NCBI GenBank assembly: GCA_964016885.1
Contig: OZ024754.1
Coordinates: 2,666,001 to 2,730,000, forward strand
Reading direction: 5' to 3'
Source of the DNA: Eledone cirrhosa
Taxonomy: Eukaryota
DNA: 64,000 nucleotides
The position numbers and the translations under genes are program-made. Numbering within the stretch: position 1 is the first letter of the stretch; every line of letters begins with the position of its first letter. Below are positions 52,514 through 53,337 of this stretch, one piece after another. Below the pieces are notes generated by a model. The model did no database searches. It saw nothing but the letters and a program-made list of their open reading frames with translations, and was not told the DNA's origin.

Positions 52514-52557
<44 letters not shown>

Positions 52558-52626
52558 TATGAAGAGAGAAGAAACATTTAGATATAATTAGTAATAAAAT
52601 GTATCATACCTAAACTGTTCCTAAAT

Positions 52627-52714
52627 TCCTCGACTACGTAGTTTCGTGGCATAAACAAAAACAATATATCAAAGATATAGAGTCCCTGCGAGGTCTGCCG
52701 ACTTATCAAGAGGA
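52627..52714 (-). ncRNA. Hammerhead motif, U3-A8 core variant (mirror copy)
   Basis: Reverse complement of 53016-53103. Confidence 0.65.
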
Positions 52715-53015
52715 TACCTCATTTTACTAGTCTCAAGAACGCGTCTACACGACGTGAGAAAGAATCCCAAAAGGCGGAGGGGGAGATAGTCACGCGATAT
52801 AACGGTCGAGAAACAGAGCTAAGCCTCCTATAACCACGAAGAAAATACCACGGAGGCGGAGGGGGTATTCATATCGACGGCCTCGATATAGGATATTATA
52901 GGAGGCTTAGCTCTGTTTCTCGACCGTTATATCGCGTGACTATCTCCCCCTCCGCCTTTTGGGATTCTTTCTCACGTCGTGTAGACGCGTTCTTGAGGAC
53001 TAGTAAAATGAGGTA

Positions 53016-53103
53016 TCCTCTTGATAAGTCGGCAGACCTCGCAGGGACTCTATATCTTTGATATATTGTTTTTGTTTATGTCACGAAACTACGTAGTCGA
53101 GGA
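53016..53103 (+). ncRNA. Hammerhead motif, U3-A8 core variant
   Basis: tcctc-TTGATAA-gt...ac-GAAA-ctacgtag-TC-gagga. Confidence 0.68.
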
Positions 53104-53337
53104 ATTTAGGAACAGTTTAGGTATGATACATTTTATTACTAATTATATCTAAATGTTTCTTCTCTCTTCATAATGTATTTTTAACTCTGATACTGGTTCA
53201 GTCTGGTTCAAACTGAATTGGTCTGTCCCGGTCATTCATTGAGCAACATCGGTGAAGTTGGCACCCTTAACTCACAGTTGGGTGCGGATGCATTCATGTA
53301 TATATGTGTGTGTCCGCATGTATCTGTGTGTTTCTAA

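Follow-up and report, generated by a model that had tools for sequence, protein, structure and literature searches.

A likely young insertion of a non-autonomous, PLE-mobilised, retrozyme-like repeat family with a U3-A8 hammerhead motif

Hammerhead motifs of Penelope-like elements (PLEs) have been described in Schistosoma, where about 1,300 motifs with a U3-A8 core stand beside about 2,000 with the usual core and UUGAUAA appears in the alignment (PMC4209133). According to the sections of the same work compared here, PLE hammerheads occur as opposite-strand pairs 100-700 bp apart, have a palindromic helix III and cleave weakly and in a dimer-dependent manner. Natural U3-A8 hammerheads were also reported by Perreault 2011 (PMC3088659), according to whom ribozymes covarying at positions 3 and 8 had previously been active in vitro. 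For PLEs, truncated copies in inverted orientation, insertion into (TA)n, tails and non-autonomous elements have been described (Craig 2021, PMC8557442). The PLE protein of Anolis nicks and extends both strands of AT-rich DNA and initiates cDNA within the RNA at two sites that lie downstream of the hammerhead and delimit the tail; hammerhead cleavage is protein-assisted and dispensable for insertion in vitro (Frangieh 2024, PMC11167929). Non-LTR retrozymes are tandem single-hammerhead units of 51-972 bp, probably derived from PLEs (PMC7229834; bioRxiv 10.64898/2026.07.22.740005), and cleavage was found in one of nine elements tested (Li 2026, bioRxiv 10.64898/2026.07.22.740005). In O. vulgaris, Penelope-like elements account for 6.8% of the genome, and 31 of their families have been active recently (PMC13282606); the parts of the text and supplement of that study compared here make no mention of hammerheads and hold no match to two short motifs. 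The literature compared on octopus hammerhead families likewise describes none that matches the family reported below, which supplementary listings could still contain.

Structure of the palindrome and its hammerhead motifs

The window, that is, the whole stretch of 64,000 nucleotides that was analyzed, is microsatellite-rich animal DNA. Inverted-repeat alignment of the window sequence revealed a palindrome of 627 bp at 52552-53178, with arms at 52552-52833 (282 nt) and 52896-53178 (283 nt) and a 62-nt spacer between them. The arms differ by one substitution (52649 G versus 53081 T) and one 1-nt indel near 52997-52998. The palindrome and its two differences had been recognized in the first-pass annotation, which gave the length as 625 bp; its placement of the element end at 53297 has to be abandoned, since family sequence goes on to at least 53330 and (AT)n resumes at 53339.

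Arm alignment and contig joints delimit the left copy, an inverted, 5'-truncated family unit on the minus strand (52552-52877). The right arm (52896-53178, plus strand) is a sense copy of the family unit, as judged from the arm alignment and public contigs. Between the copies lies the inversion junction (52878-52895, plus strand), composed of 12 nt of sense family sequence followed by 6 nt of filler and an internal deletion; the short microhomologies present there would reflect repair or a template switch. The right arm continues into a one-sided tail of about 160 nt (53179-53338, plus strand), which opens with WACTCY and ends in (AT)n. Contigs cover the tail to 53330, continuously in run X1 and as single contigs in runs X4 and X8, the last 8 nt being outside the comparison. 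The left flank is a (TA)n target microsatellite (52520-52551) and another (AT)n run begins at 53339. A target-site duplication is unreadable inside (TA)n, and neither symmetric ends nor a fixed structure was found here.

The joint of the left copy was seen in runs X1, X4 and X8, where 52834 and 52896 are connected on opposite strands. The spacer segment 52834-52877 was assigned to the left copy because its reverse complement runs straight into 52896 in all three runs. Behind 52877, X1 has a loose contig end, and X1 depth falls about tenfold across 52868-52901. No listed contig of runs X1, X4, X8 and X22 spans the locus's own inversion junction, and the evidence for the palindrome at this particular site is therefore the assembly itself. 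Both copies hold private family sequence, 52834-52877 in the left one and the tail to at least 53330 in the right one. Each thus has family sequence missing from the other, which argues against either being a fold-back of its neighbour.

Both arms contain a type I hammerhead motif with a U3-A8 core, at 52627-52714 on the minus strand (predicted cut after 52632) and at 53016-53103 on the plus strand (predicted cut after 53098). In the plus-strand motif, a 5-bp stem I (TCCTC/GAGGA, 53016-53020/53099-53103) precedes the core TTGATAA (53021-53027), in which U3 is 53021 and A8 is 53026. The stem II domain of 57 nt (53028-53084) is closed by G10.1-C11.1 and followed by GAAA (53085-53088), a palindromic 10-nt stem III, ACTACGTAGT (53088-53097), and a GUC site. 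These parts had been listed at first pass and were all found in each arm; the left copy has a G-C pair in stem II where the right copy has G·U. By sequence, the motif shows the Watson-Crick 3-8 pair in the core, the GAAA and the UH site of type I hammerheads. A U3-A8 core keeps the tertiary pair between positions 3 and 8 and is the compensatory form of it.

Chance occurrence was assessed by running a type I descriptor with palindromic stem III on the window and on 100 dinucleotide shuffles of its 49,449 unmasked bases. Two U3-A8 matches, both at this locus, and six C3-G8 matches were obtained in the window, compared to shuffle means of 0.01 and 0.0, respectively; no match in the window had a C3-A8 or U3-G8 combination. 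Rfam returned no hammerhead for this locus at the gathering score or at E<=10, as had been foreseen for consensus searches, and at the gathering score it also missed the C3-G8 hammerheads of the window; its weak miRNA matches reflect the palindrome and microsatellites. Rfam and searches limited to CUGANGA undercount hammerhead motifs of this kind.

When imposed as a constraint, the three-helix hammerhead fold was feasible (-17.6 versus an MFE of -19.0) and was not the dominant monomer fold. Its predicted ensemble share in the isolated motif was 0.002 for the right copy and 0.02 for the left copy, and with flanks it was predicted to lie 4-8 kcal/mol above the MFE. By nearest-neighbour estimate, a swapped dimer reached -51.1 kcal/mol versus 2 x -17.6 for two monomers, so that a dimer with a 10-bp stem III would be favoured by about 16 kcal/mol. 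The U3-A8 hammerhead is predicted, on these models, to cleave only as a dimer or with the help of protein. In a transcript across both arms the whole motif is predicted to pair into a long hairpin; because read-through RNA would fold into this 282-bp structure, the two hammerhead copies at the locus are probably inert passengers.

Fifteen non-microsatellite palindromes (34-755 nt as merged) were found in the window, and many of them are built like the one at 52552-53178. Nine of the 15 adjoin (TA)n on the left, and eight of these nine are without a microsatellite on the right. One of them, a 323-bp palindrome at 6516-6838 (97.8% self-alignment), has the same architecture, (TA)n being to its left and a tail to its right, and bears on each strand a type I hammerhead of the canonical C3-G8 form (6613-, 6741+). 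U3-A8 and C3-G8 elements of the same architecture within one window make a natural comparison.

Several other repeats were observed in the window. A related single hammerhead copy is located at 47647+ (47587-47747). Further C3-G8 hammerheads or core remnants are found at 11891-, 33976-, 46226-, 63564-, 29353/29359 and 45193/45317; they belong to several unrelated families, and most end tens of nucleotides downstream in a microsatellite. This amounts to about 10 hammerhead motifs per 64-kb window, none of which was found by Rfam. An open frame of 358 aa on the minus strand (48851-49924) has a C-terminal zinc-knuckle-like stretch and no Pfam match; we take it to resemble LINE ORF1. A dispersed SINE-like family of about 180 nt is represented by 54290-54470 and 13 further matches (78-91% identity), and presumably resembles octopus SINEs.

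The repeat family in public sequencing runs

Twenty of the 24 public runs listed contain part of 52834-53297. At least 0.2 of the sampled words were contained in 18 of the 24, which carry 15 organism labels and come from 14 studies; these counts exclude X19 and X20 (share <0.2) and four rows that entered by sample or study. None of the listed runs that contain the family is recorded as RNA, which says nothing about its expression. Four of the 24 runs (X1, X4, X8 and X22) were aligned to 52834-53330, and three of the four cover the hammerhead core. X1, which may come from the window's own source, has 1,052 contigs on the stretch, of which 413, 320, 151 and 168 align at >=99, 95-99, 90-95 and <90% identity, respectively. 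The family is abundant in X1, with many near-identical copies. The first-pass view that a mobile family inserted here recently is supported. Not every study that contains the family has it in abundance, since about one read on the family body was recovered from X22 (raw Hi-C reads, 1.9 Gb, organism H).

No other letter at any core position was listed at >=4% of depth in X1, X4 or X8, which makes U3-A8 the family state. Most copies could have carried C3/G8 or unpaired combinations; instead, positions 3 and 8 are invariant at this depth in the three runs, with the Watson-Crick 3-8 pair kept and no variant letter listed at either position, as a compensatory core would have it. Variants in the stem II domain also keep pairing (53044, G·U to A-U; 53063, A-U to G·U) or consist of a loop insertion. 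Departures of the window from the X1 majority are found at 53044, 53230 and 53112 (58-64% G in X1) and at the indel near 52997, where the base is missing in 58% of X1 depth and in X4 and X8. Both arms carry the minority letter at the equivalent of 53044, consistent with a single source lineage. In X1, eight contigs stop at 53178 in (AT)n, a recurrent terminus equivalent to the end of the left copy.

The organization of the unit is indicated by a 621-nt contig of X4 (record 9), which runs through 53055-53330, then 113 nt absent from the stretch, the reverse complement of 52877-52834, and 52896-53084. Its ends share 30 nt, so that a unit with a single hammerhead closes head-to-tail at about 591 nt. 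The identical 113-nt link recurs in X8 record 12, whose inversion joint is elsewhere (52866/53112), which means that inversion points vary between copies. No genomic dimer was observed directly in the aligned runs. The 591-nt closure comes from two low-depth contigs (depth 7.8 and 10.2), with 113 of the 591 nt outside the compared stretch, and a self-closing de Bruijn contig is expected alike from tandem DNA, circular RNA or a collapsed consensus. The family unit is non-coding, with a longest sense frame of 54 codons and a GC content of 40% (113 nt outside). Judged from contig sequence, the palindrome is not the family unit, which would be about 591 nt long and head-to-tail or circular. The presence of a hammerhead on both strands, to which the first-pass annotation drew attention, is real in that each arm has one; it is a by-product of inverted insertion, the family unit having a single hammerhead.

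Near-identical copies were also observed in X4 and X8 at depth 8-12 under other organism labels; they may stem from contamination or diet, from close relatives, from circular RNA or from horizontal transfer. X8 contains, in addition, a diverged family relative (53077-53181, 13 differences). There is no second family copy elsewhere in the 64-kb window. Pattern scans gave no matches in metagenome contigs, prokaryotic genomes or viral contigs, as expected for an animal repeat.

Proposed insertion mechanism and competing explanations

We consider it fairly probable that the locus consists of two 5'-truncated copies of a ~590-nt, non-coding single-hammerhead repeat placed head to head in (TA)n, which were inserted in one event by the reverse transcriptase-endonuclease of a PLE acting in trans and whose cleavage is predicted to be dimer- or protein-dependent. 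The locus is likely a young insertion of a non-autonomous, PLE-mobilised, retrozyme-like family. In favour of this explanation, inverted truncated copies, a one-sided tail and a (TA)n target match described PLE features. An inverted 5'-truncated copy beside a sense copy and a (TA)n or AT-rich target, both PLE signatures, are present, and the distance from the cut site to the end is 80 nt; counted against the explanation was the length of the tail, about 160 nt where 30-40 nt has been described.

Insertion would start from a multimeric or circular transcript of the family unit, which by the contigs closes head-to-tail at about 591 nt, bound by the PLE protein. By the precedent of the Anolis PLE (PMC11167929), the protein would nick both strands of an AT-rich target, and cDNA would begin within the RNA at two positions past the hammerhead. 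The first start site would be 80 nt past the cut, where the 3' end of the left copy adjoins (TA)n (left end, 52552), and the second about 160 nt further, where the tail ends in (AT)n (right end, near 53338). Two cDNAs would be primed from opposite target strands, one per start site; both would stop early and join 5' to 5' via microhomology at 52877-52895, leaving a palindrome with a one-sided tail.

The two differences per 282 bp translate into an age of about 1 My (roughly 0.1-3.5) by hand arithmetic, on the assumption of an octopod host and initially identical arms, with JC 0.09 taken as 25 My (PMC13282606). Template differences could make the insertion younger than about 1 My.

The locus could instead be the 5'-truncated, inverted pLTR (3' end) of an autonomous PLE, inserted by the same mechanism, the 591-nt closure being a minority deletion derivative. 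The published opposite-strand hammerhead pairs 100-700 bp apart were described as 'probably related to truncated PLEs' (PMC4209133), and the hammerhead of the locus, which combines a 5-bp helix I with a long helix II, itself belongs to the PLE type and not to the canonical retrozyme type. However, the same 113-nt link to the unit start was recovered in two runs with different organism labels and from different studies, and the longest open frame in sense copies has 54 codons. Among the 167 non-repetitive candidate ORFs of the window, 58 were scanned with Pfam and showed no RT or GIY-YIG domain; the one match among them was a sub-threshold FAM163. The locus is not assigned to autonomous EN+ PLEs, because a unit of about 591 nt is too short and neither an RT nor a GIY-YIG match was obtained in the 58 ORFs scanned. 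We regard the truncated autonomous element as an unlikely source.

A sequence shared between tails bears on a further reading. WACTCY occurs within 25 nt outward of the right arm in seven of the 15 palindromes, compared to 3.5% of random pairs (P ~3e-7); this P value is optimistic, because the motif was chosen after it had been seen and the seven tails represent about five families. The tails with WACTCY follow 6255, 6838, 28593, 29404, 34118, 46273 and 53175. Downstream of ACTC, six of the seven have GAGT, and the tail at this locus has GAGC; several are predicted to fold as hairpins. The ACTC…GAG hairpin at the start of the tail may mark where the PLE reverse transcriptase starts, and from sequence it is a candidate recognition site for that enzyme. 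A cis signal of this kind for PLE priming was not found described in those parts of the PLE literature that were compared (e.g. PMC11167929, PMC8557442). If the stem-loop, which unrelated tails share, were indeed this site, it would define how non-autonomous passengers are chosen by PLE proteins and could matter more than the family itself. Extending this, one could picture the ~590-nt unit as an expressed, circular, dimer-dependent U3-A8 retrozyme that spreads horizontally between animal species, with the unit and the other hammerhead families of the genome docking a shared PLE reverse transcriptase at a conserved ACTC…GAG stem-loop a little beyond the first start site; we judge this combination quite improbable. 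All seven WACTCY tails are on the right, in plus orientation, with a possible exception at 45871-45993; 63564 was considered alongside. This may amount to an orientation bias, for which selection within a long intron that is transcribed would be one possible cause.

It is very unlikely that the locus goes back to a viroid-like or retrozyme circular RNA passing from one species to another, with occasional reverse transcription into the genome. The 15 organism labels and 14 studies among the 18 runs with >=0.2 of the words speak for it, as do the X4 and X8 copies with one or two other letters per piece and low depth, one of them self-closing. Yet organism names were coded and may stand for close relatives, prey DNA or cross-contamination from a very abundant repeat, the sample compared was 4 of 24 runs, and only one of the two strands of the unit has a hammerhead.

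A palindromic MITE or foldback DNA transposon at TA, with a hammerhead-like motif by chance, would account for a long near-perfect inverted repeat that is short, non-coding and flanked by TA-rich sequence, but is largely refuted by the variable centre (the X8 inversion point differs, and the family unit is head-to-tail with one hammerhead) and by asymmetric ends with a family tail on one side only, and we give it next to no credence. The reading that a single copy was artificially folded back in the assembly or the library to give the palindrome, to which the lack of an aligned record across the junction and the long flanking microsatellites lend something, was rejected as exceedingly improbable, given that the arms differ at two sites, that each copy has its own family sequence, that a fold-back would run into a mirrored left (TA)n flank and not into a family tail, and that other palindromes of the window align at 68-100% identity, most of them diverged.

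Comparison with known systems

The favoured reading, a PLE-mobilised non-autonomous repeat, makes the locus an ordinary addition to a known kind, because the U3-A8 core has already been described in PLEs. The rarity and novelty first claimed for this core are not upheld: it is a published natural variant of PLE hammerheads (PMC4209133, PMC3088659). Most likely, one more abundant PLE-dependent hammerhead family has been found, probably in an octopod as suggested by the SINE and the microsatellite load, and by itself this matters little.

In the parts of PMC4209133 compared, the Cercyon PLE hammerheads of Schistosoma mansoni share with the locus the type I motif, U3-A8, a short helix I, a long helix II, G10.1-C11.1, a palindromic helix III and opposite-strand pairs, and the supplementary alignment has UUGAUAA and UUGAAAA rows. 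The motif of the locus departs from Cercyon in being without an extra base between positions 9 and 10.1, in the greater length of its stem III palindrome (10 nt) and in a bulged stem II domain of 57 nt, and it belongs to another host and sequence family. In stems II and III it is nearer to the D. virilis and shrimp hammerhead type. The hammerheads of Perreault 2011 (PMC3088659) share the C3-G8 to U3-A8 covariation and differ in sequence and context.

EN+ PLE insertions (Penelope/Poseidon, Neptune, Naiad; PMC8557442, PMC11167929), as far as they are covered in the parts compared, have in common with the locus an inverted 5'-truncated copy, a one-sided tail, a (TA)n or AT-rich target and an end about 80-90 nt downstream of the hammerhead cut. 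For the Anolis PLE, subtraction (111-118 minus 26) places the first site about 85-92 nt past the cut (PMC11167929), compared to 80 nt here. The locus differs from EN+ PLEs in having no RT-EN ORF and a tail of about 160 nt, compared to 30-40 nt.

Metazoan non-LTR retrozymes, in the portions of PMC7229834 and Li 2026 compared, are built of head-to-tail units that each carry a single type I hammerhead, the arrangement that the contigs suggest for the family, and share with it the lack of coding sequence, a low GC content (40% here) and a proposed mobilisation by PLEs. The 591-nt unit is within the 51-972 bp range of Li 2026 (bioRxiv 10.64898/2026.07.22.740005) and longer than the 170-400 nt circRNAs of the 2020 retrozymes (PMC7229834). 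Canonical retrozymes differ from the family described here, which has a PLE-type hammerhead and a dispersed inverted insertion and is known from its DNA sequence. By analogy with these systems, the element at this locus would work like a PLE-mobilised retrozyme.
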